Part shown: in pieces, positions 9,676 to 64,000 of the stretch
How the letters are laid out: the number at the start of each line of letters is the position of its first letter
Numbering within the stretch: position 1 is the first letter of the stretch
IMG/VR virus record: IMGVR_UViG_3300043409_001462
Location: 1-64,000 of that record
Strand: one strand, 5' to 3'
DNA length: 64,000 nt
Origin: a virus
Made by a program: the position numbers and the translations under genes
Notes under the pieces: model-generated
Seen by the model: the letters and a program-made list of their open reading frames with translations, nothing else
Told to the model about the DNA's origin: nothing
The model's database searches: none

Positions 9676-9689
9676 TAGTATACTAAATA
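9656..9689 (+). promoter_or_regulatory. sigma70 promoter for gp32, with overlapping late-like CTAAATA
   Basis: TTGACA (9656-61), 17 nt spacer, TATACT (9679-84) continuing as AAATA. Confidence 0.8.
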
Positions 9690-9753
9690 ATGTTGGGCGC
9701 TGAAACAGTCCAACACGACAATATTATCAATATTAACAATACGGAGAATACAA

Positions 9754-10656: not shown

Positions 10657-10660
10657 GATT

Positions 10661-10687
10661 AAGGGAGCTTCGGCTCCCTTTTTTTAT
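10661..10687. terminator. bidirectional terminator with cUUCGg tetraloop
   Basis: aagggagc-ttcg-gctccctt followed by a T-run, between convergent genes. Confidence 0.85.
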
Positions 10688-14855: not shown

Positions 14856-14880
14856 ATTATTCTCCAATGTTATATTTCAA

Positions 14881-16263: not shown

Positions 16264-16703
16264 TAAAATTTAATTCCTAATTCTTTTTCGGTAAAGATAC
16301 TAAAAGTCCATTTACGGTCTTCGCAAAACTCTCTTGCTGCTTTCCACTTAGCACTATTTATGCCCCAAGTACAAACCTCATTAATGTATCTTCTTGATTT
16401 GGTTTCTTTAATGACAGGTGGTACTGTTTGATAAGCTGGCTTTACTTCGATTATTTGAACCTCTATTTTGCCGTCAGCTGTATGTTTCTTAACATAGAAA
16501 TCTGGGAAATAGCGATGCACCTTACCATCAACAGGCGATCGATATGGAATACAAAACTCTTCTGACGACCATTGAATAACATGTGGATGATCATCCAGAT
16601 GCATCATTAGCTTTAATTCCCAACGAGATCTATAAATAACATTATTGGGATCGCCTTTGTATTTATGTGGATTTTTGGGTCTAAAATATCCTTTGTATGC
16701 CAT
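16263..16703 (-). CDS. gp4: head completion protein gp4 (TnsA-like nuclease fold)
   Basis: MAYKGYFRPKNPHKYKGD, YRSRWE, WSSEE, HRYFPDF, IEVKP; AAGGA RBS before ATG 16703. Confidence 0.88.
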   Translation of the reverse strand: MAYKGYFRPKNPHKYKGDPNNVIYRSRWELKLMMHLDDHPHVIQWSSEEFCIPYRSPVDGKVHRYFPDFYVKKHTADGKIEVQIIEVKPAYQTVPPVIKETKSRRYINEVCTWGINSAKWKAAREFCEDRKWTFSIFTEKELGIKF

Positions 16704-40860: not shown

Positions 40861-41190
40861 ATGGCATCAAAAGCTAACTTAGTAATAGATCAAGGCGCTA
40901 CATTTTCTACTGATTTGTATTTGACAGATACAGATGGTGCACCATTATTATTGAATGGTTATACAGCAGATTCTCAGATGAGAAAATGGTATACTTCTTC
41001 TAATTCTTCGGCTGTTTTTACGACCTTTGTTAATGTAGAATCTTCGTTTATAACTCTAAGCTTGGCGGCTAATTCGACAGGCGCTTTGACTGCTGGTAGA
41101 TATGTTTATGATGTAGAAATATCTGATGGTAATACTGTGTCGAGAGTTGTGGAAGGAATTGTTACAGTAACACCTCAAGTAACGAGATAA
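40861..41190 (+). CDS. small virion protein (BppU-like Ig domain)
   Basis: ANLVIDQGATF...GRYVYDVEI...RVVEGIVTVTP. Confidence 0.7.
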   Translation: MASKANLVIDQGATFSTDLYLTDTDGAPLLLNGYTADSQMRKWYTSSNSSAVFTTFVNVESSFITLSLAANSTGALTAGRYVYDVEISDGNTVSRVVEGIVTVTPQVTR

Positions 41191-41193
41191 CAA

Positions 41194-41535
41194 ATGGTTA
41201 ACGTAGCAGTACTAAACAAAATTCAAAGTATTAGAGTAAACACTAGTATTGATAAAATGAAATCTACTAATGTAGTAGTTGCAAATAAAAGAAACGTTCA
41301 AGTTTCTGCAAATGCTACAATGGGCGTAATAGATTCTACTACTCCTGTAACCATAATAAATACTCCTACGTTAATTTCTATGGGTGCTACAAGATTAAGC
41401 CAGCTCGAAGATGTTAACACAAGTAACAAAGTACAAGGTGCTACACTTGTTTACGAATCTGGTAATAATACTTACGTTGTGACACAGCTTGATATGCAAT
41501 ATATTACAGGAGGATTACAGGGAGGTACTTTTTAG
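41194..41535 (+). CDS. fibre adaptor-like hypothetical protein
   Basis: LSQLEDV motif; C-terminal LQGGTF. Confidence 0.65.
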   Translation: MVNVAVLNKIQSIRVNTSIDKMKSTNVVVANKRNVQVSANATMGVIDSTTPVTIINTPTLISMGATRLSQLEDVNTSNKVQGATLVYESGNNTYVVTQLDMQYITGGLQGGTF

Positions 41536-41536
41536 A

Positions 41537-41544
41537 TATAAATA
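41537..41544 (+). promoter_or_regulatory. T4 late promoter
   Basis: Intergenic TATAAATA. Related NATAAATA boxes lie at or near gene junctions 8328, 23136, 27045, 35053, 43373, 50183, 54893 and 61420. Confidence 0.75.
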
Positions 41545-41565
41545 TTAGAAAAAGAGCTTTAAAAT

Positions 41566-42318
41566 ATGGCTTATAGACCAATTCAAATAAAGTATTCGGT
41601 ATCGAATGCGGTTGTACCTACCTTAATTCCTGGCGAACTTGCGTTCACACAAGCTGGGAATAATTTTTTTATTGGTGCACCTGATGGCGTTTCGGGTAAT
41701 ATACGTATTGGACATAAGTTTCATGATGGTGTGCTTACCGCCAACGAAGCTTTAGTTGCCAACTCTTCTGGTGGTATAGATAGATTATACGCCGCAGCTG
41801 GTGATATTTACTCTATTAATTCTTATTCTATTACTACTAATAGTCTTTCAACTGGAAGTCTTTCAGTAACTCAATTAAACAGTTCGAATATAAGCATTAC
41901 AACCATGTTGGCCAACAGTTCTTCTGGCGAACCTGGATATGTTCTTACTTCTGCTGGCGTTAATGGAAATGTATACTGGAAGCAAATAACCGAAGGAAGT
42001 GCGACGTCTAATACTTATTACGTAACCAGTAATATGTATGATTTTAGAGCGTATAACATGGGGTTTATGAATATAGCACCAAATCAAAATGCCGAAACTC
42101 TTGGATTTAGAACTGAAATAACAATACCATATGGTTCTATTTGGCTTCTTGCTAAAAACACAACAGACCAGCCACCTGTTTCAATATCTTCTCCTGGTAC
42201 TACTATAACACCGATGATGTGGATTTCAGTCGATAAAAGTGGAACTTATGATCCTGATACTAATCCAAACGGTAAAGATTATTGGTTTAACATAACACCA
42301 CCACCGTCGGGAGCATAG
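41566..42318 (+). CDS. tail fibre-associated protein
   Basis: N-terminal IQIKYS...LIPGELAF; GYVLTS...VYW motif. Confidence 0.7.
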   Translation: MAYRPIQIKYSVSNAVVPTLIPGELAFTQAGNNFFIGAPDGVSGNIRIGHKFHDGVLTANEALVANSSGGIDRLYAAAGDIYSINSYSITTNSLSTGSLSVTQLNSSNISITTMLANSSSGEPGYVLTSAGVNGNVYWKQITEGSATSNTYYVTSNMYDFRAYNMGFMNIAPNQNAETLGFRTEITIPYGSIWLLAKNTTDQPPVSISSPGTTITPMMWISVDKSGTYDPDTNPNGKDYWFNITPPPSGA

Positions 42319-42319
42319 A

Positions 42320-43369
42320 ATGGCATTACCCACACGTGGTACGTTAGGACAAATAGTTGTTAACAATGGTTACAACTATCAATGGACTGGTGTAGGCTGG
42401 AACAATATTGGTATAGCCACTATTACTGTTGGTGCGACCACAATCAATTCTACATCTTTATCAACTGGTACCACTACAGTAAACTCTACTGGAGTATCAG
42501 CTGGTACAACATCATTAACAACTACTGGTATTACAGCTGGTACTACTACAGTAAACTCTACTGGAGTTGCTGCAGGTACTACTACCTTAACGAGTTCAGG
42601 AGTAACAGCTGGATGTACTTCTATTACATCTACTGGTATTACAGCTACATCCGTAGTTTCAAATTCTGTATCTGTTGGCGCGACCACAATTAATTCTACT
42701 GGAGTTGCAGTAGGTTGTACTTCTATTTCCACGGTTGGTGTTTCAATAGGTTGTACTTCAATCACAACAACTGGTATTGTAGCAACTTCGTTAACAACTG
42801 GTACTACTACTATCAATTCTACTGGAGTTGCAGTAGGTTGTACTTCTATTACATCTGTCGGTATATCTGCAGGAGATACAGTTTTAACAACTGGTGGTAT
42901 GAGTTTTGGTACAGGTGCAAACAGTAGCGTAGTAAACTCTACTGTTGTTTCTGTTGGTACTACAGAAATACGTAACGATAGAATTACAGCTGGTAGTATC
43001 GTAATCGGTCAATCTAATAATATCGTTCTTGGTAATAGTACTGTTAACAGTGTTATTTCATCTACATTCATATCTGTTGGTGATGGTGTAATCAACTCTT
43101 CGTTCTTCACAGCAACGTCTAACAATGCGAATAACTTAGGTGGCGTTTCGTCTGATTACTACATAAACACTTATGGTAATTACGTAATAAGTGGAGTTCA
43201 TACATATAATGCTAATGTCGCAATAAATAGTCGTATTATAATTGGAGGTAGTGCAGGTAACACGTGGGATTTACTTACATCTAATGGTGTATCTAATAGC
43301 GTGTTTTGGGCTAATATTGCAACAGTAATTACTTCAACAGGCGCTAGTTTGGACGGTGGGGATTTCTAA
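42320..43369 (+). CDS. Thr/Gly-rich repeat fibre protein
   Basis: About 11-aa repeats TT(I/V)NSTGVxxG / CTSITxxG; C-terminal LDGGDF. Confidence 0.7.
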   Translation: MALPTRGTLGQIVVNNGYNYQWTGVGWNNIGIATITVGATTINSTSLSTGTTTVNSTGVSAGTTSLTTTGITAGTTTVNSTGVAAGTTTLTSSGVTAGCTSITSTGITATSVVSNSVSVGATTINSTGVAVGCTSISTVGVSIGCTSITTTGIVATSLTTGTTTINSTGVAVGCTSITSVGISAGDTVLTTGGMSFGTGANSSVVNSTVVSVGTTEIRNDRITAGSIVIGQSNNIVLGNSTVNSVISSTFISVGDGVINSSFFTATSNNANNLGGVSSDYYINTYGNYVISGVHTYNANVAINSRIIIGGSAGNTWDLLTSNGVSNSVFWANIATVITSTGASLDGGDF

Positions 43370-43399
43370 TTAAATAAATAATAAAAAAAGGATTCCGTA

Positions 43400-45652
43400 A
43401 TGGCACGCAATACAATTCAAGTTAGACGTTCGGCGACAAATAGCATCACTAGCCTTCTTAGTGGTGGTTCGCTTGCGGCTGGTGAATTAGCATATACCAG
43501 TAATGGTGTTTTACTTTACATCGGTGATGCGAATAGCGTAGGTACACCTATCCGTATCGGCGGACAGATGAATCCTGGTGTTCTTACTGCTAATCAAGCT
43601 CTTGTTGCTAACTCTACACTTGGTATCGATAAAATTATAGTTGCAAATCTTGCAATTAGTAGAATTACTGCAAACGGCGAATTTGGAACTCCTGGTTATG
43701 TGTTGGCTACATCTGGTACGCTTGGTAATGCTTACTGGACTTCGTCTTCTGGTTTCGGTGTAGATCCTTTCGCTTCTTATGTTTGGACAAACACACATAC
43801 ATTTAGTAACTCAGTTACTTTTGAACAAACAATCATAGGTACATCATATAACTCTGCTAGACTTGGTGGTCTTGAGGCTGGTCAGTATGTTAATTCTACA
43901 TATCTAACTACCAATTTTCAATTAAGTGGTAGTGCGCTTTCTGATAATGTTGCTTCCCTTACAGCAAACAATGCTACTAATTTAGGTACGCAACCAGCTA
44001 CTTACTTTGCTGCTAATTCTGCTCTGAGTAATTACACAAATACTGCTAGTTTACCTGGATTTATGTCTACGAGAGCAGCTAACAGCGCCAGTTATCTTGG
44101 TGGTGAAGCAGCTACTTACTTTGCTGCTAATTCAGCTCTTGGTAATTATACAAATACTGCTAGTTTACCTGCATATATAGCTACAATATCTGCTAATAAT
44201 GCGAGTCATCTCGGCGGTCAGGTAGCGACTTACTTTGCTGCTAACTCTGCATTAGCAAACTATACAAATACTGCTAGTTTACCAGCATATATAGCTACAC
44301 AAACAGCATATAGCGCCGACAGACTTAATGGTCAGTTACCAACGTATTATACAACTAACTCAGCATTGTCTGGGTATGTTGCAACAATGACTGCAGGTAA
44401 TACTTCATTTGTCGGTGTAAGTCCAGCTTCTAGTATTGTTAATGCAACAACATTAACTGCAAATCTTAATAATTACGCTGCTCTTGCTGGTGCAAATTTT
44501 AGCGGTGTTGTTAATGCATACTCTTACAAAACTGGTACAGGATACGGTGGAGCTGGTGGCCCAACAACTACAGGCGCTATAGTTAATACAACTCATATCG
44601 CTATCGGTAACAGTAGTGTTAATGGTGCGATAACAGCTAACTCTACTAATGTATTTTTTACTGGTGTTGCATATAATGCTAACGTCGCTGCATATATCGG
44701 TACCGTAGCAGCTGCAGATGTTGCACCTCGTTCTGAAGTTGTAGCGTTAATTTATGATGCTTCTTATGGCGGTGCTACTCAATCATACGTTGATACAAAA
44801 GCTGCTCAAGCTTATACTAATGCGTTTAATTATGCGAGTATCAACCATAGCCTTGCTATAGCGAACTCTGTAACAGCATACACTAACGCTTTAGCTGTTA
44901 CGCTTACAAGAAATGCAACGTATACTGGTAATAATATATTCAATGGCACTATAGCAACATTTAATGCTAATATTGTTGCTTCTAATGCATCTTTTTGGAA
45001 TCTTAATGTTACTGGCAATTTAAATATTTCTGGTACACTAACTACTATCAATAGTACAGAACTTCAAATAAAAGACAACAGTATACTTCTATCTGATTCA
45101 CAAGCTAATTCGTCAACTTATACAGACGCTGTTGATATTATTGTATATGGTCAATTTGGTAATACTTCGAATACTTGGTATTCTGGTTTATATCGTGATT
45201 CTTCTGCTAGTCTAGGTCGAACTAATCCTAACTTAGGTGTTTGGAAATTATTTTCTGCAAAAAGTGGTACTGGTGATAATTCTATATCTAATTCTACTGT
45301 AGCTGCGATGACAGCTACTGAAGGAGATGTCAATTATAAACTAGGTATATTAACAGCTTACCTTGAACCATATGGCGAAACTGGCAGATTTGTTGCTAAT
45401 GCTACTTCTATTTCAATAACAGCTAACAGTACTGTTAATGTAAATATTTCTGCCAATTCATTAGTACTAAGTAGTCCGTTAGCAGCTGTAAGTGGTGGTA
45501 CTGGCATTAACACTTATAGCGTTGGTGATATGCTTTATGCTGCCAGTTCATCAACATTTACTAAAATATCTGTTGGTACTCCTGGTCAAATACTACAAAT
45601 ATCAGATCAAAACCTTCCACGTTATGCAGATTTGGATGGTGGCTCGTTTTAA
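43400..45652 (+). CDS. tail fibre protein
   Basis: N-terminal IQVRRS...GELAY; tandem ~39-aa ATYFAANSALxNYTNTASLP repeats; C-terminal LDGGSF. Confidence 0.75.
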   Translation: MARNTIQVRRSATNSITSLLSGGSLAAGELAYTSNGVLLYIGDANSVGTPIRIGGQMNPGVLTANQALVANSTLGIDKIIVANLAISRITANGEFGTPGYVLATSGTLGNAYWTSSSGFGVDPFASYVWTNTHTFSNSVTFEQTIIGTSYNSARLGGLEAGQYVNSTYLTTNFQLSGSALSDNVASLTANNATNLGTQPATYFAANSALSNYTNTASLPGFMSTRAANSASYLGGEAATYFAANSALGNYTNTASLPAYIATISANNASHLGGQVATYFAANSALANYTNTASLPAYIATQTAYSADRLNGQLPTYYTTNSALSGYVATMTAGNTSFVGVSPASSIVNATTLTANLNNYAALAGANFSGVVNAYSYKTGTGYGGAGGPTTTGAIVNTTHIAIGNSSVNGAITANSTNVFFTGVAYNANVAAYIGTVAAADVAPRSEVVALIYDASYGGATQSYVDTKAAQAYTNAFNYASINHSLAIANSVTAYTNALAVTLTRNATYTGNNIFNGTIATFNANIVASNASFWNLNVTGNLNISGTLTTINSTELQIKDNSILLSDSQANSSTYTDAVDIIVYGQFGNTSNTWYSGLYRDSSASLGRTNPNLGVWKLFSAKSGTGDNSISNSTVAAMTATEGDVNYKLGILTAYLEPYGETGRFVANATSISITANSTVNVNISANSLVLSSPLAAVSGGTGINTYSVGDMLYAASSSTFTKISVGTPGQILQISDQNLPRYADLDGGSF

Positions 45653-45668
45653 ATGATGGAGATATATT

Positions 45669-45995
45669 ATGAATGAAGAATTTATTAACACTTACATTGA
45701 AATGAACAACAAGAAAATTGAAGAACTAACTCGTTCTGAAATACTTCTTCAAACAAGGATAGTTATAGCCGAAAAGGCTGTTACTAAATTAAACGACGAG
45801 AAGAAAAGCTTTTCAGACGATTTTGAAAATTTCAAAGAAGTACAACTTAATGTTCAAAAAGAATACAGTGAGAAGAACAAAGAGTTGTTTAATGAAAATC
45901 AGGATTTAATTAATCAGAAAAAAATGTTATTGCAGGAAATTGAATCGTTGAAACAAGCAATCACTTTGGTTTCGGAGAATCAAAAAAAGAAGTAA
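45669..45995 (+). CDS. coiled-coil protein, possible fibre chaperone
   Basis: GGAGA RBS; charged heptad-rich sequence. Confidence 0.7.
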   Translation: MNEEFINTYIEMNNKKIEELTRSEILLQTRIVIAEKAVTKLNDEKKSFSDDFENFKEVQLNVQKEYSEKNKELFNENQDLINQKKMLLQEIESLKQAITLVSENQKKK

Positions 45996-46028
45996 TACCT
46001 CGGTATATACCGATTATGAGGATGCCAT

Positions 46029-48851
46029 ATGGCTGATAATAAAATTTTAATTAAGCGCACGAACATCCCAGGTCGTGTCCCTAACACCACCAATTCATCT
46101 AATTCGATGTACATCGCAGCAGGTGAATTTGCGCTTAACATGGCGGACAAACAGCTATACACGTCAAATGGCTCCTCATTAATTACTATTGGATCTTCTC
46201 CTACAACATTAACGCTTGCTGATTCTTTACGTATTGGTTTAATTGAAACTAATTTACTGCTTATTAATTCAACAGCTGTATTTACTGGTAACGTTACTTC
46301 TAATACATTAGTAGGTACAGGTTCTATTTCAGTTCAAAATACTACTAGTAATTCAACAATAAGTCCAACAACGATTTATGTTGGTAACAATATAGCTAAT
46401 ATTTCATTGGACGTAACTGGTGGTGTGAAAACTATTCCAATTAGCTTTGCTAATATCAATTCTTCTGGTGTTGCAACAATACAAACTACTATCAATCACG
46501 GTATTACTCTTGTTACTCAGGCTAAACTATACGTAAATACTTCACAAATTTCTTTGAATACTGCGAACTACAGTTCTGATTATAACCCAGCTGGTTTTAA
46601 TATAGTCGCTATACCATCAGCAAATAGCGTAAAGGTTAACATACCTACAGCTGAATTTAAATATAGATGGGGTGATAGAACAATCACCTACATCAATAGA
46701 AATTTACAGGGTGTAGTTACCATCCTCACAAAAGGCGCTCATGGTTATCAAAATGGTGATAAAGCATACACTACTAATGTTAAGTACGACCCAAATAAAG
46801 CACCATTTACATTTCTAGATAATGTATTATTACCTGTACCGAGTACGCTTACTGTAGTAGATGATTTTACTGTAAATTACACTCAATCTGATTATTCTAG
46901 TGTTTCTAGATCAATTCAAGGAGCTAAGTTTACTTTAGCTGCTGTTGAACCTGTAATAGTAGGTATTCCTGAAAGAGGGCAGTATTTTGATAAAAAAATA
47001 GTTATTATTAGAGTTACTAGTTCAGTAGTATCTAGTTTTAAAGTAGGCGATCCTATAACACTTTCTGGTCTTCCATATCAACCAAATAGGGGCGATCATG
47101 ATAGAGTTGCTTCAGAAAGAGGAACTTATTTTAATAACGTAACTCAAATTTCTCCTTCTTATTTGAATAAAACTTGGTTCATTAAAGATATTGTTATTAA
47201 TAATGATAATACTACCTCTATTTCTATTTTTATAGTAGAAGAAGATCGATTGAAAAAGTGGTATTTTACTGGTGGTTTAAACGAAATAACTATAGGCGCT
47301 GGCGCATACATCTTAGTAAATTACACAGATACAGGCGTATTGACCAATACTTCTCAGCTTTGTCCATATTTTGCTAATAGTTCTATTGGCGGTGAAATTT
47401 ATGCAACAAACCCAACAGGTATTACTATCAAAAACGGATCAAAATTAATCTATGTTCTTGATAGCGCTGTATACGTTGGCAACAATACTATTGGTAATAT
47501 TATTGACGTTTCTGGTTCAAGAGTTTTTAAACCTACAGATGTAGAATCTATTATACCACCAACTTATATTGTTCAAGCAAGCACTGCTTCTTTAAACGAA
47601 GGCGGTACTGTAATTTACAGTATCACTACTTCTAATTTTGGTACAGGAACATTATACTGGACGAACTCTGGAACTACAATCGGTGCCGACTTTACAGATG
47701 GAACTAACTCAGGTACGATAAGTATAGTTAATAATTTCGGTACGATTAGTAAAACGTTAGTAAATGATTTTACTGCCGAAGGATTAGAAACTATTATATT
47801 AGAACTTCGCACTAACTCTACTTCTGGACCTATAGTTGCAACATCAAGTACAGTATCAGTTATCGATACTTCTTCTCAAACATACGCTATTGCCGCAAGT
47901 TCTTCTTTCAGAGACGAAGGTCAAACTATTACATTTACTGTGACAACACAGGGCGTTCCAAACGGAACTACTTTGTATTATAAAAACGTTGGTACGACAA
48001 TTGCAGCTGACTTTGATGATGGATTAAATTTTGGTAGCTTTAATATAAACGACAATAGTGGCACTGTCGTTAAAACAGTACGTAACGACTTTACTTCTGA
48101 AAATCAAGAAAATATTCGAATAGAAATTCATACTGTTTCTGTTGATGGACCTACAGTTGTTACTTCAAGTACGGTGCAAGTATTTGATACTTCTATTCCA
48201 ACATACTCTATTGCTGCTGATGTTAACCCAGTCGCAGAAGGTAATAAGGTTACATTTACTGTAACAACTCAAGGCGTTCCTGATGGAACTACTCTGTTTT
48301 GGACGAACTCAGGAACCACTACTGCAGCTGACTTCTACGAAAATACAAATTCAGGAAACTTTACTGTTTCAAATAACAGAGGAACAGTATCTAGAATTCT
48401 ATATTATGATTTACTCACAGAAGGATCCCAAAGTATTATATTCCAAGTTCGAACAGGTTCGACTTCTGGAACTATTGTCGCCTTCTCAGTACCAGTAACA
48501 GTAACCGATACTTCGATCGCAACTAGCCCATACTATGGAATAACACCAACAACTTATAGTACAAGCGAAGGAAACTCAGTTTCTTTTGACGTTTACGCCG
48601 AACAAACTCCAAACGGAACCACTCTTTATTGGACGAATGAAGGAACATCTACTGCGGCTGATTTTACAGACGATTTAAATTTTGGAACTGTTACTATTAA
48701 TAGTAGCCATGGTACTGTGGTCAGAAATATCAGACAGGATAGTTTGACAGAAGGGTCAGAAACATTTATATTTGCGTTAAGAACTGGTTCTATTACTGGA
48801 CCTATTGTTATTATGACAACTCCAATTACTATAGCCGCTAACGCTACTTAA
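46029..48851 (+). CDS. tail fibre/adhesin with four Calx-beta/Ig-like repeats
   Basis: N-terminal ILIKRT...GEFALN; four ~105-aa repeats EG..V.F...GT(T)LY(W)...ADF...D..(T)EG.E. Confidence 0.75.
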   Translation: MADNKILIKRTNIPGRVPNTTNSSNSMYIAAGEFALNMADKQLYTSNGSSLITIGSSPTTLTLADSLRIGLIETNLLLINSTAVFTGNVTSNTLVGTGSISVQNTTSNSTISPTTIYVGNNIANISLDVTGGVKTIPISFANINSSGVATIQTTINHGITLVTQAKLYVNTSQISLNTANYSSDYNPAGFNIVAIPSANSVKVNIPTAEFKYRWGDRTITYINRNLQGVVTILTKGAHGYQNGDKAYTTNVKYDPNKAPFTFLDNVLLPVPSTLTVVDDFTVNYTQSDYSSVSRSIQGAKFTLAAVEPVIVGIPERGQYFDKKIVIIRVTSSVVSSFKVGDPITLSGLPYQPNRGDHDRVASERGTYFNNVTQISPSYLNKTWFIKDIVINNDNTTSISIFIVEEDRLKKWYFTGGLNEITIGAGAYILVNYTDTGVLTNTSQLCPYFANSSIGGEIYATNPTGITIKNGSKLIYVLDSAVYVGNNTIGNIIDVSGSRVFKPTDVESIIPPTYIVQASTASLNEGGTVIYSITTSNFGTGTLYWTNSGTTIGADFTDGTNSGTISIVNNFGTISKTLVNDFTAEGLETIILELRTNSTSGPIVATSSTVSVIDTSSQTYAIAASSSFRDEGQTITFTVTTQGVPNGTTLYYKNVGTTIAADFDDGLNFGSFNINDNSGTVVKTVRNDFTSENQENIRIEIHTVSVDGPTVVTSSTVQVFDTSIPTYSIAADVNPVAEGNKVTFTVTTQGVPDGTTLFWTNSGTTTAADFYENTNSGNFTVSNNRGTVSRILYYDLLTEGSQSIIFQVRTGSTSGTIVAFSVPVTVTDTSIATSPYYGITPTTYSTSEGNSVSFDVYAEQTPNGTTLYWTNEGTSTAADFTDDLNFGTVTINSSHGTVVRNIRQDSLTEGSETFIFALRTGSITGPIVIMTTPITIAANAT

Positions 48852-48860
48852 GGATGATAA

Positions 48861-50222
48861 ATGGCTAACAATTTTTCTTCTATACTATCTTCTGATCACT
48901 TAGCAATTGAAACGCTCAGTGAACTACTGGATGGTCAGGTAGATCAAACTGCTAATAGTTTATACGCTAATGCTAGTATAATCAGCATTGGTAATTCTTC
49001 TGTATACACTTATATTACACCTTATGATTTTACTACTTCGAAAGTTACAATAGGCACCGCTTCTGCAAACGTAGTTATAGATCCATTAAGTATTAATTTA
49101 AGTTATGCTGGACGTAATACTTCTATTACTCCATTCAATTCTACTTTTGCTGGTTTATTAACAGCTGAAAGTGGTATTTTTGTAACAGGACAAACATATC
49201 TTGGTCAAGAATTATATGCTAATGGTATTGCTGGAAATAGCGGCGATGTACTTGTAGCTTCTGGCGCTGGTCAATACTGGTCAAATTCAGTAAACAATGC
49301 AATAAATCTTGCTGGCGTTCCTTCTACTTCTTATGTTAATTCTACTGGTACCTATACTATCAGCGGCGTTCATACACATATTGCAAACCTAGTATTTGGT
49401 AACTCTACCGTTAATTCTACTATGTTTGCTAACTCTACCAATGTATTCTTTACTGGAATTTCATATACAGCAAACAACTCTATAAATCTTGGTGGTGAAC
49501 CAAAATCTTATTACGCTGCGAATAGCTTATTAGATAACTATCTAACGCTTTCTGGAACAGCAGCTAACGTTGCTGAATTAACTGCTAACAATTCAAACTA
49601 CCTTGGTGGTATTGCAGCAAACGAATATATGTTGCTGACTACTCTTCCAGGTTTACAAACTAAAGCTGCTTTGGCAGATGACGTTCATAAATTAACAGCT
49701 AATAGTTCTGATTATCTTGGTTCTTATGCTGCAGATCAATACGCATTCGCTAACGTTATACCTACACTTCAAACTAAATCTGCATTACCATATGATGTTT
49801 CTCAATTATTAGCAAATAGCGCTAACTATCTTGGTGGTTTATATCATACTTTATACCCTACTAAATTTAATAATTCTATCATTACTGGTGTTTATACATA
49901 TAATGCAAATGTTCAGTTAAGAGCAGCTTTATGGGCTAACGGTAGTCCTGGAGCTCTTGGACAAGTACTGGCTGCAGATGCAAGCGGTAACGTGTTCTGG
50001 CAAACTACTAATGGTCAATCTATTTCTGTAAATAACTTTGTTGTTACTGGTAGAGTTGTAGCAAATTCTTTCGTTGGTGAAAAAGGATTAGTGTTAACGT
50101 CAAATGGTAATGGTGTTTATTGGTCTGATGTTAGCACTACAGGCGCAGGTACTTTCGATGGGGGTACACCTTTGTCTTCTTATATAAATAGTCCAAAACT
50201 AGACGCTGGCGGAGTGTATTAA
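48861..50222 (+). CDS. tail fibre protein
   Basis: ANxxxYLGG repeats, GQVL...VFW motifs, C-terminal FDGG...LDAGGVY. Confidence 0.72.
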   Translation: MANNFSSILSSDHLAIETLSELLDGQVDQTANSLYANASIISIGNSSVYTYITPYDFTTSKVTIGTASANVVIDPLSINLSYAGRNTSITPFNSTFAGLLTAESGIFVTGQTYLGQELYANGIAGNSGDVLVASGAGQYWSNSVNNAINLAGVPSTSYVNSTGTYTISGVHTHIANLVFGNSTVNSTMFANSTNVFFTGISYTANNSINLGGEPKSYYAANSLLDNYLTLSGTAANVAELTANNSNYLGGIAANEYMLLTTLPGLQTKAALADDVHKLTANSSDYLGSYAADQYAFANVIPTLQTKSALPYDVSQLLANSANYLGGLYHTLYPTKFNNSIITGVYTYNANVQLRAALWANGSPGALGQVLAADASGNVFWQTTNGQSISVNNFVVTGRVVANSFVGEKGLVLTSNGNGVYWSDVSTTGAGTFDGGTPLSSYINSPKLDAGGVY

Positions 50223-53200
50223 TGGCAATTCAAATTCAATTTCGCAGAGGAACAGCCGCCCAGTGGGCTTCTGCGAACACTACACTTACGCAAGGTGAAC
50301 TTGGACTAGAAATAGACACAAGCTATTTTAAAATTGGTGATGGAAATACTGCTTGGACTAATTTAGGTTATGCTATATCACAGCTAGCAAATAATGCTAC
50401 ACATGCAAATAACTCTGCATATCTTGGTGGACTTATTGCTACTGGTTATCAAACCACTGCAGGACTAGCAGCTAACGTTGTTACTTTAGAAGCTAACTCT
50501 GCAACTTATCTTGGCGGTAACACAGCTGCTACGTTAAGAACATATACTGATGATAGAGCAGCTAATGCATACTCTAATTCTGTTTCGTATGTAGAAACAC
50601 AAATTAGTGGGAAAATTGCAAATTCTATTACAGCTAACTCTGCTACTGCTTACACTAACGCTGTAAACATAGCTGCAGCTGATGCATCAGCAAAAGTTGG
50701 TGGTGTTATATCTTATGTTGGTGTTGTAATTGGTACAGCTAATACTGCTATGGTTGCAAACGCTGAAGCTGCTTATACTAACTCTACAATATTCGCTTCG
50801 AACGCTACTAATATTAATACTGGTACGTTATCTGAAACTCGTTTACCATACCGTATGAACCAAAATGTTCGTACAACAGATAACGTTACATTCAATGATA
50901 TGGCGATTACTGGTAACTTGACTGTTACTGGAAATACTACAATCGTTGGCGCAAATAATCTAGTAGTTAAAGATTCTGTTATCAGTCTTCATACACAAGC
51001 TAACCTAGCTGCATGGACTTCGAATGATGGCAAGCTAGTTGGTGTTGCTTATCATTACTACGATACACAAGATCGTCAAGCTCTACTTGCGATGAATCCA
51101 TCGAATACATTTCTTACATATTACAAAACATCAACTGACGCTGCTATAGCTGATCCTACTGGTACTGATCTTGGTACTATTCAAGCTGATACTTTCTATG
51201 CTGGTAACTCTACTGTTTACTCAACAGTTAATGCTACTGTATACAGCGGAACAGCGAATAACGCATCATACTTAAATGGTAATTCAGCTGCAACGTTAAT
51301 ATCTCTTAGTAGCACATCGTATACGAATGCTGTTTCATATACAGATACCAAGATCGGTCTAGTTAACACAGCTATCACAGCTAACTCTTCTGCTGCTTAC
51401 TCTAATGCTGTACTTTATGTCGACAACAAATTATACGTCAACTCTGCTCAGTTGTCAAGCAATTTATCAAGCTATCAGACGACAGCAGGATTGAGCGCAA
51501 ATGTTGCTACTCTTACATCTAACAGTGCATCGTTTATAGGAACATTACCAGCTGTCAATGTTGTTTCTAATTCACAGTTATCTTCGAATCTAGCTAACTA
51601 CGTAACAACAACTAACCTTACAAACAACCTAGCTAACTATCAAACTACTGCTGGGTTAAGTTCAAATGTTGCTACTCTTACATCTAACAGTGCATCATTT
51701 GTTGGTGCTGTATCGGCTGCAAATGTCGTATCAAACGCCCAGCTTGTAGCAAACCTAGCTAACTACGCGACTACTACTGCAGCTACTGCATATGCAGCAA
51801 CAGCCTACTCGAATGCTGTATCTTATGTTGATGCTAAACCATACGTAAATACATCTCAGCTTTCATCTAACCTAGCTAACTACCAAACTACTGCTGGTTT
51901 GTCAGCAAATGTTGCAACACTAACTTCTAACAGTACATCGTTTGTTGGCGCTGTATCAGCTGCTAACGTTGTATCGAACACTCAGTTATCATCTAATCTA
52001 GCTAACTACCAAACTACTGCTGGTTTGGCAGCTAATGTCGCTACTCTTACAGCTAATAATAGTAGTTTTATTGGCGCAATATCTGCTGTTAACGTTGTAT
52101 CTAATTCTCAATTAAGTTCTAATCTTTCTGGGTATGCTTCATTAAGTGGTGCTACTTTTACTGGCGCTGTTCAAATTTCAAATAATTTAACAGTGTCTGG
52201 AAATATAACTTTTTCTGGTAATAGTGTTTCTGTTGGCGCAAATAGTTTAGTTATTCAAGACGCTGTTATCAGCCTTCATACTAATTCTAGTTTGGGTGCG
52301 TTATCTTCAAATGATGGTAAATTGATTGGTATAGAATATCATTACTATGATACTTCTGATAAACATGCATTACTAGCAATCAATCAATCAAACGCTTTTC
52401 TTTCATATTATAAAACTGCAACAGACGCAGCTATCGGAGATCCTACTGGTATATTACTTGGTACTATTCAGGCGGATACATTTTACGCTGGTAACTCTAC
52501 TGTATACACCACAACAAACTCTACAATTTATACTGGTACATCTAACAATACTTTATACGTAGGAACAGTATCAGCAGCCAACGTTGTATCTAATGCACAG
52601 CTAGCAGCTAACCTAGCAAACTTTGCTTCTTCTGGTTCTCTTTCAGGATACCAAACAACAGCGGGATTAGCAGCTAACGTAGCAACCTTAACATCTAACA
52701 GCACTAATTTTGTTGGTACTGTATCTGCCGCTAACGTTGTATCAAATAGTCAACTTAGCTCTAATCTTGCGAATTATCAAACTACTGCTGGCTTGTCAGC
52801 AAACGTAGCTACGCTTGCATCTAATAATGCATTGTATCTTGGAGGCGTAGCAGCTGCTTCATATGTTAATACTACTGGCTCTTATAGTATTACTGGCGTT
52901 CATACATATAACGCTAATATAGTTATTAGCACATTAGCTGGTATTTCTACTAATGGAACATTTGGTACATCTGGGCAGGTATTGACAACAAACGGTTCTG
53001 TTGTTTACTGGGCACCTACAGGCGCTGGTAGCTTTACTAATGGTCAATCTATTTCTGTTAATAATTTTGTAATTTCTGGAGTTATCACAGCTAATTCTTC
53101 TAATGGTACTGCAGGTCAGGTATTAACATCAAACAGTACTGGTGTTTATTGGGATGCGCCAGCTGTATCTATAACTGCTGCTAATGCTACTTCACAATCA

Positions 53201-53473
53201 TTTACTGGTGACAATACAACAGCAATATTTACGCTAACCAATTCAGTAGCAAATCAAAGGAACGTAATTGTTTCTATTAATGGTTTGCTGCAGGTTCCAG
53301 TAACTCATTATACTATTTCAGGAACAACATTAACATTCACTGATGCTCCTTATACTGGAGCTGTTATTGAAGCAAGAAGTATAGAAGGTGTTGCGCTTGT
53401 TAGTGGAGGTTCTGGTGGAACAATTTCTAGTGGTGATCTATTCATAGGTTCAATGCTCTTAGGCGGAATGTAA
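50222..53473 (+). CDS. tail fibre protein with Mtd_N-like N-terminal domain and internal repeats
   Basis: IQFRRGTAAQW...QGELGLEIDT..FKIGDG..W; repeated QLSSNLANYQTTAGLSANVATL; duplicated ~100-aa YHYYDT domain. Confidence 0.8.
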   Translation: MAIQIQFRRGTAAQWASANTTLTQGELGLEIDTSYFKIGDGNTAWTNLGYAISQLANNATHANNSAYLGGLIATGYQTTAGLAANVVTLEANSATYLGGNTAATLRTYTDDRAANAYSNSVSYVETQISGKIANSITANSATAYTNAVNIAAADASAKVGGVISYVGVVIGTANTAMVANAEAAYTNSTIFASNATNINTGTLSETRLPYRMNQNVRTTDNVTFNDMAITGNLTVTGNTTIVGANNLVVKDSVISLHTQANLAAWTSNDGKLVGVAYHYYDTQDRQALLAMNPSNTFLTYYKTSTDAAIADPTGTDLGTIQADTFYAGNSTVYSTVNATVYSGTANNASYLNGNSAATLISLSSTSYTNAVSYTDTKIGLVNTAITANSSAAYSNAVLYVDNKLYVNSAQLSSNLSSYQTTAGLSANVATLTSNSASFIGTLPAVNVVSNSQLSSNLANYVTTTNLTNNLANYQTTAGLSSNVATLTSNSASFVGAVSAANVVSNAQLVANLANYATTTAATAYAATAYSNAVSYVDAKPYVNTSQLSSNLANYQTTAGLSANVATLTSNSTSFVGAVSAANVVSNTQLSSNLANYQTTAGLAANVATLTANNSSFIGAISAVNVVSNSQLSSNLSGYASLSGATFTGAVQISNNLTVSGNITFSGNSVSVGANSLVIQDAVISLHTNSSLGALSSNDGKLIGIEYHYYDTSDKHALLAINQSNAFLSYYKTATDAAIGDPTGILLGTIQADTFYAGNSTVYTTTNSTIYTGTSNNTLYVGTVSAANVVSNAQLAANLANFASSGSLSGYQTTAGLAANVATLTSNSTNFVGTVSAANVVSNSQLSSNLANYQTTAGLSANVATLASNNALYLGGVAAASYVNTTGSYSITGVHTYNANIVISTLAGISTNGTFGTSGQVLTTNGSVVYWAPTGAGSFTNGQSISVNNFVISGVITANSSNGTAGQVLTSNSTGVYWDAPAVSITAANATSQSFTGDNTTAIFTLTNSVANQRNVIVSINGLLQVPVTHYTISGTTLTFTDAPYTGAVIEARSIEGVALVSGGSGGTISSGDLFIGSMLLGGM

Positions 53474-54924: not shown

Positions 54925-57900
54925 ATGGCTGTTCAAAAGATACTTTCGCAACAAATAGCTAACACTGGTGGTACAGCAGGGCAGGTTCTTGTTGCCAACT
55001 CTACTGGTGTTACTTGGGGTGATGCTAATAACGCAACAAACCTCGGTGGTGTTGCGGCTGCTTCTTACGTTAACACAGCTGGCGCGTATACCAGAACAGG
55101 TGTTACTACATTTAATGCAAATGCAGTTATTGGGCCAACTGGCGAGTTAGTATTCGACGCTAATTCTGGTATCTATGCCAATGGATCACTTGGTACGGCT
55201 GGCCAGGTATTAACTTCTAATGCAACAACTATATATTGGGCTAACTCTTCTGGCGGTGGCGGTGGGTTTACCAATGGTCAGTCAATTTCAGTTAATAACT
55301 TTGTGGTGTCTGGTTCATTTACTGCTAACGGGTCAGTTGGTGCGTCTGGTCAAACATTATTATCAACTGGTACTGGTGTACAGTGGGGTACAAATTCGCC
55401 TGCGTATAATTATAGCACACAGCTTAACGGCGCTGCTCATTTTTTCACTTTTCCTTCTAATGCAGCATTTGGTTTCGGTACAGGTGATTTTACAATTGAA
55501 TGTTGGATATATCCAATAATACTGAGTGCTGGAAGTCAACCTCTTATAGATTTTCGAAATGCTAACTCAGGTGCTTATCCAACCCTATTCATAAACGGTT
55601 CAACTGTTAGTTATTACGTAAACAGCGCCACTAGAATATCTGCAGGAAGTACAATATCAAATAACAATTGGTATCACTTAGCACTTGTAAGAATAAGCGG
55701 TTCGACTAAATTATACATCAATGGTGTACAATCGGGAAGTACTTACGCTGATACTACGAATTACCTTACATCTCCCATAACCATTGGTAATTTTAATGAT
55801 GGTGTAGGTGGCTCATATACAAATGGATTAATTACAAATGCTCGTGTTGTAAAAGGAACTGGCGTTTATACAGGAGCATTTACAGTTCCAACAAGTCCAT
55901 TATCAGCAATATCTGGAACATCGCTTTTAACTTGTAATTCTATTACTCCGAGTGATTCATCATCATATAATTTTGCACCAATTAATAATGGTCTTGCTGT
56001 TGGTACAGCTACTCAATCACCATTCACCTCCACCACAGTATCAATACCAACCAGTTCACTTACTGCAGTAAACCAACAATTCACTGGCGACGGATCAACA
56101 ACTACATTCTCTGTTGCTGGTGGTTATACTCCAAATGCTATTGCTGTTTATTATAATGGTTTGAAACTTCGTAATGGTTCAGACGTTACTGTTACTAATG
56201 GTTCAACTGTTGTGTTTGCTATTGCGCCTCAAATTGGTGCAATGCTTGACGTGGTGGCATCTGTTCCAACAACTTATAGTTCGATTACTCCTGTTGGATA
56301 CAGCGTATTGTTTAACGGAACAAATCAGTATTTTACTATACCAAACAATACTGCATTTACTATGGGAACTAGTGATTTTACAATTGAATATTGGGCTTAT
56401 ATTACATCAGGTAGTAGAGATTCTAGTGTATATGCTAAAGGAGCTACTAGTGCAATATATAGATTAACTACTGGGTTTAACACATCTAATCAAGTTACGG
56501 CTGGTATACCAAATGCTGCTGGTAATGGATGGACACAACTACTTGTCGGTTCTGCTGTTTCAGTTAATAAATGGGTTCATGTAGCTTTAGTAAGGTCAGC
56601 TGGAACAGCAACTCTTTATTTAAATGGCATTGCTGTAGCTTCTGGTGCTGCTAGTAACTCTTTATATGATGATGGAACTGCTCTTGCTATAGGTACTACT
56701 GGTTCTGTAACTCCTGCTTCCTATTTTGCTGGCTATATTTCAAATTTACGTGTCGTTAAAGGCGTTGCAGTTTATACAGGATCATTCTTACCAACTGGCC
56801 CATTAGCTGCTGTTCAATTAGCAACATCAACTCAATCGGCAATCACTGGCACACAAACATCACTACTTACTTGTAACGGACCAACGATTATTGATGGTTC
56901 AACTAATGCGTTCACAATAACTAATAATGGAACTGCAACTGTATCAACTGCTATTGTTCCCACATTTACTAATGTGACGGTTACTAATACTAGTAACACA
57001 GCTGGAGGTTTTTCTTGGCAGTCTGTTCAATCAACTAATTTTACTGCTGTTGCTGGTTATGCTTATCCAGTCAATACTACAGCTGGTTCAATTACAGTAA
57101 CATTACCCGCAAGTCCATCCCCAGGTAACATTGTACAAATAACAGACTATGCTGGCACATTTGGAACATATCCAGTTACCGCTGTTAGAAATGGATCGCT
57201 TATAACTGGATTAACTATAAATGCCACTTTAGGATCATCTCGTGGAAGTTATTCTTTTGTTTATATAGATTCTACTCAAGGCTGGATAACTTATTCTGTT
57301 TCTGTAACAAATATATTTCAACCGTATGCGGCAACATATTTAATGGTCGCGGGCGGAGGTGGAGGTTCTGGTGGCTCAACAGGCGCATGGGAAGGCGGTG
57401 GTGGTGGTGCTGGTGGATTATTAACTGGAAGTACAAACCTATCGCCTGGAACAACTTACAGTTTTGTTGTTGGTGGTGGTGGACCAGGAGGTGCTGGCGG
57501 TTCGAGTGCTGGTACTTCTGGTTCAAACTCTACTGGATTTACATTATCAGCAATTGGTGGTGGAAATGGAAGAGGATCAGTAGGTGCTGGTGGAGCTGGC
57601 GGTTCTGGTGGCGGAACTTGGAATGGTGCGGGTGGCGCTGGAACAGTTGGTCAAGGTAATGCTGGAGCTTCAGGAAATGCAACTAATGCTGCTGGTGGTG
57701 GTGGTGGCGCTGGTGCTGTTGGTGGTCTATCAAATGGTGGTGTTGGTGCAGCATCATCAATTACTGGTTCAGCAGTAACATATGCTGGCGGTGGCGGTGG
57801 TAGTCAAGGCGGCGTTGGAGGAGCTGGTGGTGGTGGCAACGCCTTCAACCCTGGCACAGCTAATCTTGGTGGTGGTGGAGGAGGAGGTAGCTCTAGTATG

Positions 57901-58059: not shown

Positions 58060-58536
58060 ATGACACAGATTCAACAATTAGGTTTTCTTGCTAATAATTT
58101 GACTGTAAATACAGCGGCCAATACAGCTACGATCACGAATGCATTGGTTGTTGGTAATAGTTCTGTTAATGTTGTTATTAATTCTTCTTCTGTTTATGTC
58201 AGTGGTGCTGCTCTTGGTGGTTCAACTAATGTCGCCGCTCAATATGCATGGACTAATACACATACATTTGGCGCCAATTTAACCATATCAAATACTTCTG
58301 AATTGATTTTAAGTACCAATGCTGGTATCTATGCTAATGGCTCGTTGGGCACAGCTGGTCAGTTATTAACATCCAATGGCACAACTGTTTATTGGTCTAC
58401 TGTTGCTGGTGGTGGGTTTACCAATGGTCAGTCTATTATGGTGTCTAATGTTGCTTTTTCAAATACATCAAACACAGCATCAGCTTATACATTCTATAAC
58501 ACATCAACAGCAAGTCTTGATACGGTATTTGTTTAA
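58060..58536 (+). CDS. short fibre-associated protein
   Basis: Shares GIYANGSLGTAGQLLTSNG..VYW and FTNGQSI modules with neighbours. Confidence 0.7.
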   Translation: MTQIQQLGFLANNLTVNTAANTATITNALVVGNSSVNVVINSSSVYVSGAALGGSTNVAAQYAWTNTHTFGANLTISNTSELILSTNAGIYANGSLGTAGQLLTSNGTTVYWSTVAGGGFTNGQSIMVSNVAFSNTSNTASAYTFYNTSTASLDTVFV

Positions 58537-61450: not shown

Positions 61451-64000
61451 ATGGCAAAACTCAATTCAGGCACAAGAATATACGGTACAGCTAACGTCGA
61501 TACCAGCATTGGCATCGGTGGTAACTTAGTTGTCAATAATACTACGTTAACAATTACTGGTAATACTACGACTGCTCCAACTGCTATTTTTCAAGGCGCT
61601 AACGTAATTATTGGTAACTCTTCTATTACTGGAGCTCCACAAGCAATATTTGCTAACTCTCTTGGTAATACCGTAATAAGCACTACATCCTTTGTATTAT
61701 CTAACTCTACAGCAGTACCATTTACTGCTAATCTTTCTGGACTGTATCACACAGGTGTTATTAATGCTGCATCCCATACAACAGGCGCACCTTTAACAGG
61801 TACAGGCGGTATTACTGCTAACGTAACAACTATAGTTGTTGGTAATAATACAATTAACACTACAATTACCTCTGCTGGTTTAACAGTTAATGGTACAGCT
61901 GTTATTGCAAACTCTATTGGTGTTTATAGCACAGGTACGATCAACGCTGCTTCACATACTGTTGGTACTAGCTTTATTGCAAACAGCACTCAGTTAACAA
62001 CAACATATCCAACAGTTCATACTGCAAACGTTACTGTTAATGGCGCTATTATTGCAAACGCTACATCAGGCACTGCTGGTCAAGTACTGACATCAGCTGG
62101 TACTGGTAACGTATACTGGTCAACTGCATCTGGCGGTGGCGGTGGGTTTACCAATGGTCAGTCAATTTCAGTCGCTAACCTTGCAGTTACTGGTTCGCTG
62201 ACTGCTGGCGCATCAGTTGGTACATCTGGACAAGCATTAGTATCAACTGGTACTGGTGTACAATGGGGTGCATTGTCACCTGGATATAATTATAGTTCGC
62301 AGTTCGGTGGTGGTAATCAATATCTTGGTATTACTGCTTCAAACGCAGCATTTGGTTTTGGTACTGGTGAATTTACAATAGAAGGTTGGTTTTATCCAAC
62401 TCTTAATCCTGCAAATGGTGTTGGCACTATTTTTGAATTTAGGGTGACGAATAACGCATCTGCTCTTACAATGCGAATCAACACTTCGCTTCAATTAGTG
62501 TTTTATGATGGTGGCGCGAACGTAGAAACTGCATTTACAACTAGAACAGTTTCTTTAAATGCATGGCAGCATGTAGCATTTGTTAGAATTGGTAATACAG
62601 TATATGGATATATCAATGGATTATTAGCAGGAAGTGTTGCAGTAACTTCTAACCTTGGTAGTTCTCAACCTTTTTATATAGGCACAAATCAAACTGCTGG
62701 TTATAATTATTACGGATTAATTTCTAATGTTCGTGTTATTAAAGGAACTGGAATTTATACAGGTGCATTTACGCCGCCAACTTCACCACTTTCAGCTATA
62801 TCAGGCACATCAGTATTAACTTGTAATGCTATAACACCAACATCTGATTCATCAACGAACGCATTTCAATTTACGAATGGTAATGGCGTCACCACAACAG
62901 CCACTCTATCCCCATTCACATCCACAACAGTATCAATACCAACAGCATCACTAACCGCTGTCAGACAACAGTTCACTGGTGATGGGTCAACTACAACATT
63001 TGCTGTTGCTGGTGGATATACACCTAATGCCATTTCTGTATTTGTTAACGGTGTATTACTTCGCAATGGTACTGAAGTAACAGTAACGAACGGTTCAACT
63101 GTTGTGTTTGCTATTGCTCCTTTGAGTGGAGCATTGATTGATGTTATTGGAACTGTTCCAACAACTTATAGTTCGATTACACCTGTTGGATATAGTGTTG
63201 GGTTTAATGGAAGTAGTCAGTATTTAAGTGCTACTAATAATCCAGCATACGTTTTTGGAACTGGTAATTTTACTGTTGAACTATGGTTATATCCAACATC
63301 TGTTACAGCTTCAACTACAACTAAAGTTATAATGTCTACCTATCAAGATGCGTCTAATGGTTGGACTATCGGATTAAACAACACAAACAATTCTCTCTAT
63401 GTATCAGTTGCTGGTGACAGTGCAACGATTACTGATGGTTCTGGCACAATTGCAATAAATCAATGGTATCACATTGCTTTGGTTCGTAACGGTACAACAT
63501 TAACTTTATATAAAAATGGCGTAAGCATTGGAACACCATTAACTAATTCAACAAATATATCATCAACTTCAATACTTTCAATTGGTGCGTCAACTGGAGG
63601 AACTTTATTTTTTCCTGGGTATATTTCCAATGCTCGTATTACAAAAGGTGTAGCAGTTTACACCAACAACTTTACAGTCCCTCCTTCTCCATTAGCAGCA
63701 GTACAATCAGCTTCTGGTGCTTATATCCAAGCAATTACTGGCACACAAACATCACTACTCACTTGCAACGGACCAACTATTATTGATGGTTCAACCAACG
63801 CATTTACGATAACTAATAATGGTTCTGCACCAGTATCAACTTCTATTGTGCCTACGTTTACTAATGTTACGATTACAAATCCTATTACCTCCTTTTTGGC
63901 ATCTTATCTTGTTGTTGCTGGTGGTGGTTCTGGTGGTGCAACCAGTTCTGGTACTAGTTCTGGTGGTGGTGGGGGTGGTGCAGGAGGGGCGCTTACAGGC
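61451..64000 (+). CDS. partial LamG/Gly-rich tail fibre, paralog of 54925..58050 (runs off the window end)
   Basis: ATG 61451 (MAKLNSGTRIYG); the frame matches the window end (...GGGGAGGALTG); missing from the track because there is no stop; LamG and FTGDGSTTTF modules. Confidence 0.8.
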   Translation, partial: MAKLNSGTRIYGTANVDTSIGIGGNLVVNNTTLTITGNTTTAPTAIFQGANVIIGNSSITGAPQAIFANSLGNTVISTTSFVLSNSTAVPFTANLSGLYHTGVINAASHTTGAPLTGTGGITANVTTIVVGNNTINTTITSAGLTVNGTAVIANSIGVYSTGTINAASHTVGTSFIANSTQLTTTYPTVHTANVTVNGAIIANATSGTAGQVLTSAGTGNVYWSTASGGGGGFTNGQSISVANLAVTGSLTAGASVGTSGQALVSTGTGVQWGALSPGYNYSSQFGGGNQYLGITASNAAFGFGTGEFTIEGWFYPTLNPANGVGTIFEFRVTNNASALTMRINTSLQLVFYDGGANVETAFTTRTVSLNAWQHVAFVRIGNTVYGYINGLLAGSVAVTSNLGSSQPFYIGTNQTAGYNYYGLISNVRVIKGTGIYTGAFTPPTSPLSAISGTSVLTCNAITPTSDSSTNAFQFTNGNGVTTTATLSPFTSTTVSIPTASLTAVRQQFTGDGSTTTFAVAGGYTPNAISVFVNGVLLRNGTEVTVTNGSTVVFAIAPLSGALIDVIGTVPTTYSSITPVGYSVGFNGSSQYLSATNNPAYVFGTGNFTVELWLYPTSVTASTTTKVIMSTYQDASNGWTIGLNNTNNSLYVSVAGDSATITDGSGTIAINQWYHIALVRNGTTLTLYKNGVSIGTPLTNSTNISSTSILSIGASTGGTLFFPGYISNARITKGVAVYTNNFTVPPSPLAAVQSASGAYIQAITGTQTSLLTCNGPTIIDGSTNAFTITNNGSAPVSTSIVPTFTNVTITNPITSFLASYLVVAGGGSGGATSSGTSSGGGGGGAGGALTG

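Follow-up and report, generated by a model that had tools for sequence, protein, structure and literature searches.

Conserved C-terminal peptides and N-terminal Mtd_N-like domains as a probable joint between consecutive fibre proteins of a T4-like cyanophage

The first 64 kb (here the window) of the viral record IMGVR_UViG_3300043409_001462, which comprises 173,384 bp and is rated complete by CheckV, contain an array of fibre genes whose products carry two kinds of recurring ends: a C-terminal peptide of the hydrophobic-DGG type, called plug or tail, and a small Mtd_N-like domain at the N-terminus, called head or socket. With a probability of about 0.7, the array encodes multi-protein fibres in which a conserved tail-head joint connects each trimeric segment to the next, end to end. 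The plug, hydrophobic-D-G-G-x-F/P, would either be the very end of the protein or be followed by a short second DGG-like motif, and it would pack on the first β-strand (I-Q-x-K/R-R) and neighbouring residues of the Mtd_N-like domain of the next segment. Judged by its genes, the source is a T4-like myovirus of the marine cyanophage type, because structural genes at 19.8-37.6 kb of the window match T4 gp5, gp6, a baseplate wedge subunit, gp8, DUF4815 and VrlC. The G+C content is ~0.32-0.39 across the phage structural genes of the window, and from 37.8 kb on every long gene lies on the plus strand and is fibre-protein-like.

Naming each gene by its start position in the window, 41194 ends in LQGGTF and 41566 begins with ..IQIKYS..GELAF; 42320 ends in LDGGDF, followed by 43400, which begins with ..IQVRRS..GELAY and itself ends in LDGGSF; 46029 begins with ..ILIKRT..GEFAL; and 48861 ends in FDGGTP...LDAGGVY, followed by 50222, which begins with ..IQFRRGT..GELGL. 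A previous sequence-only reading of the window had quoted eight termini, all of which read as stated, and its claim that each socket gene is preceded by a plug gene, with 43400 bearing both ends, is confirmed, the small gene 45669 lying between 43400 and 46029. Among 904 open reading frames (ORFs) of at least 40 amino acids (aa) in the 173,384-bp record, C-termini of the GG-x-[FYW] form are found only in 41194, 42320, 43400 and 48861, while an N-terminal I-[QL]-x-[KR]-[RYK] strand combined with GE[LF][AG] occurs, in the whole record, only in the long ORFs 41566, 43400, 46029 and 50222. Both sets alternate in gene order, all within one fibre array, and when the order of the 16 genes of this array was shuffled, all four heads were preceded by a tail in ~0.12% of 200,000 permutations (p ~0.0012).

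The same reading had proposed adjacency statistics across phage genomes as a check, and the enrichment in other genomes is very strong, from the head side as well as from the tail side. When viral contigs were searched with only the 56-aa head of 50222, the upstream gene was tail-bearing (hydrophobic-[DN][GA]G in the last 30 aa) in 38 of 45 distinct cases, compared to 6/298 for the other genes of those loci under the same criterion (Fisher 6e-37, the sequences being phylogenetically non-independent). These upstream proteins range from 55 to 1322 aa, many of them being collagen-like, and are alike only in the tail, with the consensus N-[LIF]-DGG-x-P-x-S-x-YGG-I-x-S-I-DAGGV in 29 aligned relatives (alignment A4), which is the tail of 48861. 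Starting from the tail alone, all 44 distinct tails found lie within 6 aa of the stop codon, in proteins of 61-1018 aa, and 43 of them are followed by a gene starting MA(I/V)QIQ(F/Y/L)RRG as judged by eye, the search pattern itself having flagged 25. Scanning DNA for L-D-G-G-x-F-stop, with a codon-restricted pattern that sees only part of such ends, showed a head in one of the two genes that follow for 45 of 68 distinct ORF ends and for 76 of 560 comparison genes (p 9e-20), both counts being among the matches listed.

The arrangement is also seen outside the viral contigs, as a tail lies upstream of 8 of 12 heads in metagenome-assembled prokaryote genomes of several phyla. Regarding named phages, the endopeptidase of Streptococcus Javan531 ends in ..ILDGGNQ and precedes HylP; gp33 of Arthrobacter phage Ranunculus, which has its own head, ends in ..NIDGGTP before gp34; gp26 of Gordonia phage Catfish ends in ..VLDGGEL before gp27; and gp24 of Stenotrophomonas phage DLP5 ends in ..ILDGGGA before gp25. 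The C-terminus of g087 from Cellulophaga phage phi14:2 is ..ILDGESLD, and in Bordetella phage BPP-1, the founding Mtd_N case, the putative tail-fibre gene bbp9 (..ADLGGIA) stands directly before mtd. In the literature searched, from which subscription journals fell outside the scope, neither a tail-head motif rule, including its extension to Mtd_N, HylP and Mtd, nor a description of a partner of the Mtd_N domain was found.

Contact between plug and head was modelled for the 48861/50222 pair, one of the four, as a complex of three N-terminal 90-aa pieces of 50222 and three C-terminal 60-aa pieces of 48861, using an alignment of 29 rows for each. The interaction prediction score from aligned errors (ipSAE) was 0.76, 0.77 and 0.77 in three runs, which share at least 87% of their contacts, and 0.00 in three of three controls, so that the multimer check proposed for the window is passed by this pair (0.77 vs 0.00). 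The score mark applied is reached by 58 of 80 solved complexes and by 2 of 110 mismatched pairs, counts that are only roughly valid here because own alignments and 3+3 chains were used. On the head side, the predicted interface comprises residues 1-10, 14, 15, 17, 18, 20, 23 and 45 of 50222, and on the tail side residues 429-439 and 441 of 48861 (A-G-T-F-D-G-G-T-P-L-S and Y). The predicted contact is thus made via the first DGG (FDGGTP), not the terminal LDAGGVY, and therefore the first DGG would be the plug, which fits the minimal Arthrobacter, Streptococcus and Stenotrophomonas tails, as these stop just past it.

The modelled contact unites the most conserved positions of the alignments, namely D, G and G of the tail with R8 and W15 of the head. 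Among the PDB chains, a tail profile gave no match at E (expect value) <= 10, and the only matches of the head profile are crystal structures of isolated HylP; as far as can be judged from sequence, no comparable complex is solved, and the model would owe nothing to the memory of one. In monomer models by AlphaFold2, the predicted local distance difference test (pLDDT) was 55.5 for the small tail protein, with one hairpin only, and 33.5 for 41566, poor values being expected because these are obligate trimers.

Covariation between both ends points in the same direction as the model. A plug with D is paired with a head with K-R or R-R in 36 distinct pairs, and Q or H replaces this D exactly where the head has K-Y, in three pairs (41194/41566 of the window and the related loci L010 and L012), which are one clade and hence probably one event. 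The model places R8 and R9 against G41-T43, beside D40, and the change to Q/H together with K-Y is as would be expected if the D of the plug touches the second basic residue of the head.

T4 fibres are assembled end to end in gene order, and as in the T4 long tail fibre, where consecutive genes encode consecutive trimeric segments, the window shows a series of consecutive fibre genes. Residues 4-97 of 46029 match residues 5-88 of T4 gp37 (BLASTP E 3e-7, as a single comparison of the first 100 residues of each), and tblastn with the 46029 head matches gp37 of Klebsiella T4-like phages and of Acinetobacter phage Ac42 at E 7e-5 to 4e-3. Directly before gp37, the C-terminus of gp36 is QDFGYY in T4, LDYGTY in Ac42 and IDFGSY in Miro, and the end of 43400, LDGGSF, also has the hydrophobic-D-x-G-x-aromatic pattern of this joint. 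Trimeric gp36 binds the N-terminal region of gp37 in T4 (PMC3004832). Because of the gp37-like head, the end peptide of gp36 and this known binding, the passage from 43400 to 46029 is, by analogy, the counterpart of that from gp36 to gp37, even if the body of 43400 shows no similarity to T4 gp36 (best E 0.39) or gp34 (best E 2.7).

There are also differences comparing both joints. The tail of the window has D-G-G-x-F, whereas gp36 has D-F/Y-G-x-Y; a small coiled-coil gene intervenes in the window; and the joint recurs in the window, with four instances and three sub-types of head. An atomic description of the T4 gp36-gp37 joint was not found in the literature searched. As a separate observation, T4 gp34 (locus L217) contains, ~50 aa before its C-terminus, the internal stretch ..VFDGGNPPQPSDIGALP.., resembling the canonical tail N-F-DGG-x-P-x-S-x-YGGI; in gp34, the chain continues for ~45 residues beyond it.

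Modular docking of one receptor-binding protein (RBP) on another, via a short conserved element and a small domain, is also known from the anchor-and-branch RBPs of Klebsiella and related phages, where the conserved N-terminal peptide of one spike docks on the T4gp10-like domain of another (PMC6872550). In the window, both polarity and components differ, a C-terminal peptide being paired with an N-terminal domain, and no Pfam or PHROG match to the T4gp10-like branching domain was obtained in the ten array proteins scanned.

Regarding the heads, the sequence-only reading had called all sockets Mtd_N-like, which holds at the Pfam level for 50222, a member of Mtd_N (PF18454; 51.5 bits, E 9.4e-14, residues 5-43, cut-off 26.3; 55 bits in the genome search). 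The remaining three stay below threshold, 43400 scoring 16.2-16.6 bits against the gathering cut-off of 26.3 and 41566 and 46029 having no direct Pfam Mtd_N match, and their kinship is a remote one, seen by profile-profile comparison. With hhalign, the type-1 family profile (A7, from 43400) is related to the Mtd_N-type profile (A5) with a probability of 94.5% (E 8e-8), and the gp37-type profile (A8) to the type-1 profile with 96.4% and to the Mtd_N-type profile with 70%. Thus, three head sub-types are present in the window, type 1 (41566 and 43400), gp37 type (46029) and canonical Mtd_N (50222), each preceded by its own tail sub-type. Type-1 heads are devoid of the three-residue stretch holding W15, and the final residue of their plugs is F, in place of the P of the canonical tail; by sequence comparison, F or P in the plug may match the absence or presence of the W15 stretch in the head. 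The head profile also matches HylP structures at E 1e-11 to 2e-17, and in both model phages, those of HylP and Mtd, the upstream gene ends in a DGG/LGG peptide, the difference being that the structures 2C3F, 2YVV, 2DP5, 3EKA and 6X3M in the PDB are of isolated proteins.

Relatives of the array were collected as loci L001-L052, of which 10 are viral contigs found with 43400 and 42320 and 42 with 41194. Their cassette starts with a 109-aa phrog_3304-related protein, followed by a small tail protein of 74-113 aa, a fibre of ~430-900 aa with head and tail, a small coiled-coil gene and a fibre starting ..NNKIQ[FI]KRT..GR.PNTT..GE[LF]A.N. Among 21 distinct relatives of 41194 (74-113 aa; alignment A9), 17 end in DGGxF, and a head-bearing fibre gene directly follows every one. 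Taking these loci and the window together, 46 distinct genes end in a tail, the head gene being next in 25 and after one small gene in 14, and the remaining seven are mostly cases in which two small genes intervene or which the search pattern overlooked. At the position of 45669, most relatives, as well as Prochlorococcus phage P-HM1, have a small gene (64-182 aa). The distance from the tail gene to the gp37-like head gene is ~3 kb in L041-L052, two genes on the other strand lying between them, and therefore strict adjacency is not required. These inserted minus-strand genes encode ~200-430 aa and ~680 aa and lie at ~9.8-12.5 kb of each locus.

L010 is the closest relative, and here a single 213-aa gene (9791-10432) has both head and tail; the N-terminal 125 aa of 41566 are 55% identical to it, and the C-terminal 145 aa of 42320 are 66% identical to its C-terminus. 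The fused gene of L010 thus corresponds to a split pair, head-only and tail-only, in the window (41566-43369) and in L012 (8373-10487), which suggests, from sequence, that 41566 and 42320 may be connected by another kind of joint. Comparing the split pair to the fused gene, the head-only gene has a new C-terminal domain of ~100 aa and the tail-only gene a new N-terminus and long repeats.

The same cassette is present in the cultured Prochlorococcus phage P-HM1, in genes 091-095. There, PHM1_095 (8992-16269 of locus L220), annotated as gp7 baseplate wedge initiator, has a gp37-type head and stands after a tail-bearing fibre and a coiled-coil gene, and the small adaptor with the tail is PHM1_092 (6928-7149 of the same locus), which carries a YadA-domain annotation; by this comparison, neither annotation looks right.

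Docking of the DGG peptide into the N-terminal domain of the next protein, as the sequence-only reading had proposed, is hence a predicted binding supported by the adjacency, one multimer model, the covariation and the precedent of T4 gp36-gp37. Three chains would be built in this way: 41194, as a small adaptor, would carry 41566; 42320 would carry 43400 and, through it, the distal gp37-like 46029 with its immunoglobulin (Ig)-like repeats, having 45669 nearby; and 48861 would carry 50222. These are the likely chains, and in the virion such units may be arranged as chains or as branches.

Several points weigh against the tail-head joint. The adjacency counts include related sequences, and ~15% of the canonical heads are without a recognisable upstream tail, as in Synechococcus phage S-SM1. 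About a fifth of the LDGGxF ORF ends from viral contigs, among the matches listed, fall in two recurrent, mutually unrelated non-fibre contexts: a Lys/Glu-rich ..KEKxKLDGGDF before MSILDKIKKNSS, with eight cases among these matches, and a small protein ending in ..NLDGGTF before MSRPKPTVLLE, with ~5. The head-less LDGGxF ends fall mainly in these two contexts, and therefore the hexapeptide alone is not diagnostic. Within the window, 41566 has no tail and 42320 no head, interrupting the chain, so that a single continuous chain would need a different joint there, the alternative being a chain end; furthermore, the plugs LDGGDF and LDGGSF are nearly identical, which is a difficulty for cognate pairing. 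Regarding the model, it covers one pair of the four, 48861/50222, the pLDDT of the tail is low (55-58) and the score calibration is not strictly applicable. The non-fibre ends are located in loci L244, L246, L252, L255, L277, L300, L304 and L311, and in L247, L280, L309 and L313.

A first alternative, which is considered unlikely, is that the gene boundary acts as a recombination linker only, similar ends being kept for module swapping with no touching of these ends in the virion. The flanks are indeed mosaic, as the upstream (55-1322 aa) and downstream (65-1394 aa) proteins are alike only at the junction, and compared to L010 the window has replaced the middle between a conserved head and a conserved tail. 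However, what is conserved is the protein sequence, in phages that differ strongly in base composition and in the phylum of their hosts, the intergenic spacing varies from a 20-base overlap to a 64-base gap, and ~3 kb with two opposite-strand genes separate tail and gp37-like head in L041-L052, besides the passing of controls by the 48861/50222 multimer model and the known binding of T4 gp36 and gp37 (PMC3004832). Both explanations are not exclusive, as a docking joint would itself serve as a swap point.

It is likewise improbable that the DGG tail is a tag for a fibre chaperone, such as the small coiled-coil protein, for a processing protease or for a baseplate site, the heads then attaching elsewhere. 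Small chaperones, gp57A and gp38, are needed by T4 fibres, the window and most relatives have a small coiled-coil gene next to the 43400 tail, and LDGGxF ends non-fibre proteins too. Nevertheless, three of the four pairs of the window and nearly all canonical pairs elsewhere are without this small gene, the tail sub-type follows the head sub-type, and the model seats the tail on the head with controls at 0.00. Chance adjacency of glycine-rich, low-complexity ends, which could be imagined for fibre proteins rich in G, S, T and N and with internal linkers (..GGGF-TNGQSISV..) repeated in neighbouring genes, is effectively refuted by motifs that are unique in the genome, by the permutation result (p ~0.001), by the enrichments elsewhere (6e-37 and 9e-20) and by the C-terminal position of 44/44 tails from the tail-only search.

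A wider and tentative extension of the tail-head joint would be a docking code shared by nearly all tailed phages and made up of the tail and the Mtd_N/gp37-type head, with the sub-types as orthogonal address labels by which several fibre chains sort themselves within one virion. The candidate labels would be D in the plug with K-R in the head versus Q/H with K-Y, and a C-terminal F where the head has no W loop versus P where it has W. If such a code is true, fibre architecture would be readable from gene order and end motifs alone, in the least annotated part of phage genomes, the fibre and receptor-binding genes. The end-motif rule would tell which partners join and separate adaptors from distal pieces touching the host, the window having 46029 and 50222 as distal candidates and 41194 as adaptor, and it would correct annotations such as that of P-HM1 gene 095. 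In addition, the Mtd_N domain would gain a function in Mtd and HylP, that of attaching them to the tail protein encoded before them. For the junction of T4 gp36 with gp37, the joint offers a testable model, and it gives research on the evolution and exchange of fibres a natural module boundary.

The genes of the array are collected in Table 1. The first of them is the context of the cassette and is no part of a joint; in the majority of the loci L004-L052, a similar gene immediately precedes that of the small tail-bearing protein. For 45669, a role as chaperone or knee piece may be considered. Searches of Pfam, PHROG and NCBIfam gave no useful family for 41194, 41566, 42320, 43400, 45669 or 48861, and tblastn of full-length 43400 against cultured phages gave no match. 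The stop codon of 48861 and the start codon of 50222 have one base in common. Joining of the gene pairs by programmed frameshift or readthrough was considered and dropped, as spacing and frame vary freely between pairs.

Table 1. Genes of the fibre array, with the positions of their putative heads and plugs (window coordinates)
Gene product	Coordinates	Strand	Head	Plug	Remarks
109-aa protein	40861..41190	+			PHROG phrog_1084, E 4.5e-24; phrog_3304 'L-shaped tail fiber protein assembly', E 6e-20
Small tail-bearing protein, 113 aa, first link	41194..41535	+		GLQGGTF, 41512-41532
250-aa fibre protein	41566..42318	+	Type 1, ~41566-41700	None
349-aa repeat-rich fibre protein	42320..43369	+	None	SLDGGDF, 43346-43366
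750-aa fibre protein	43400..45652	+	Type 1, ~43400-43555	DLDGGSF, 45629-45649
108-aa charged protein, probably coiled-coil	45669..45995	+			Between 43400 tail and 46029 head
940-aa distal fibre protein	46029..48851	+	gp37 type (type 3), ~46029-46202		C-terminal Ig-like repeats; Pfam Ig_3 match, E 1e-9
453-aa fibre protein	48861..50222	+	None	Long tail AGTFDGGTPLSSYINSPKLDAGGVY, 50145-50219
1083-aa fibre protein	50222..53473	+	Canonical Mtd_N, ~50222-50371

Besides the joints between genes, an internal linker, ..G-x-x-GQVLTS-x-G-x-x-x-YW..GGG-F-TNGQSISVNNFV.., is repeated in 50222, 54925, 58060 and 61451, at ~53020-53080, 55250-55300, 58400-58450 and 62130-62180 of the window. It resembles the stretch before and at the 48861 plug (..GLVLTSNGNGVYW..GAGTF-DGGTP) and, from this resemblance, may be a covalent counterpart of the joint.

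For the T4 late-promoter box TATAAATA, no enrichment is seen in the window, with 6 found versus 9.65 expected; two of the six (41537-41544 and 50183-50190) sit 22 and 32 bases before the starts of the head genes 41566 and 50222. The G+C content of the first 4 kb of the window is 0.46-0.50, above that of the remainder. Near the left end of the record, ARAGORN reports a permuted transfer-messenger RNA at 5645-6064 of the window, with the tag peptide ANDNNASRLALAA, overlapping a tRNA-Arg(TCT).

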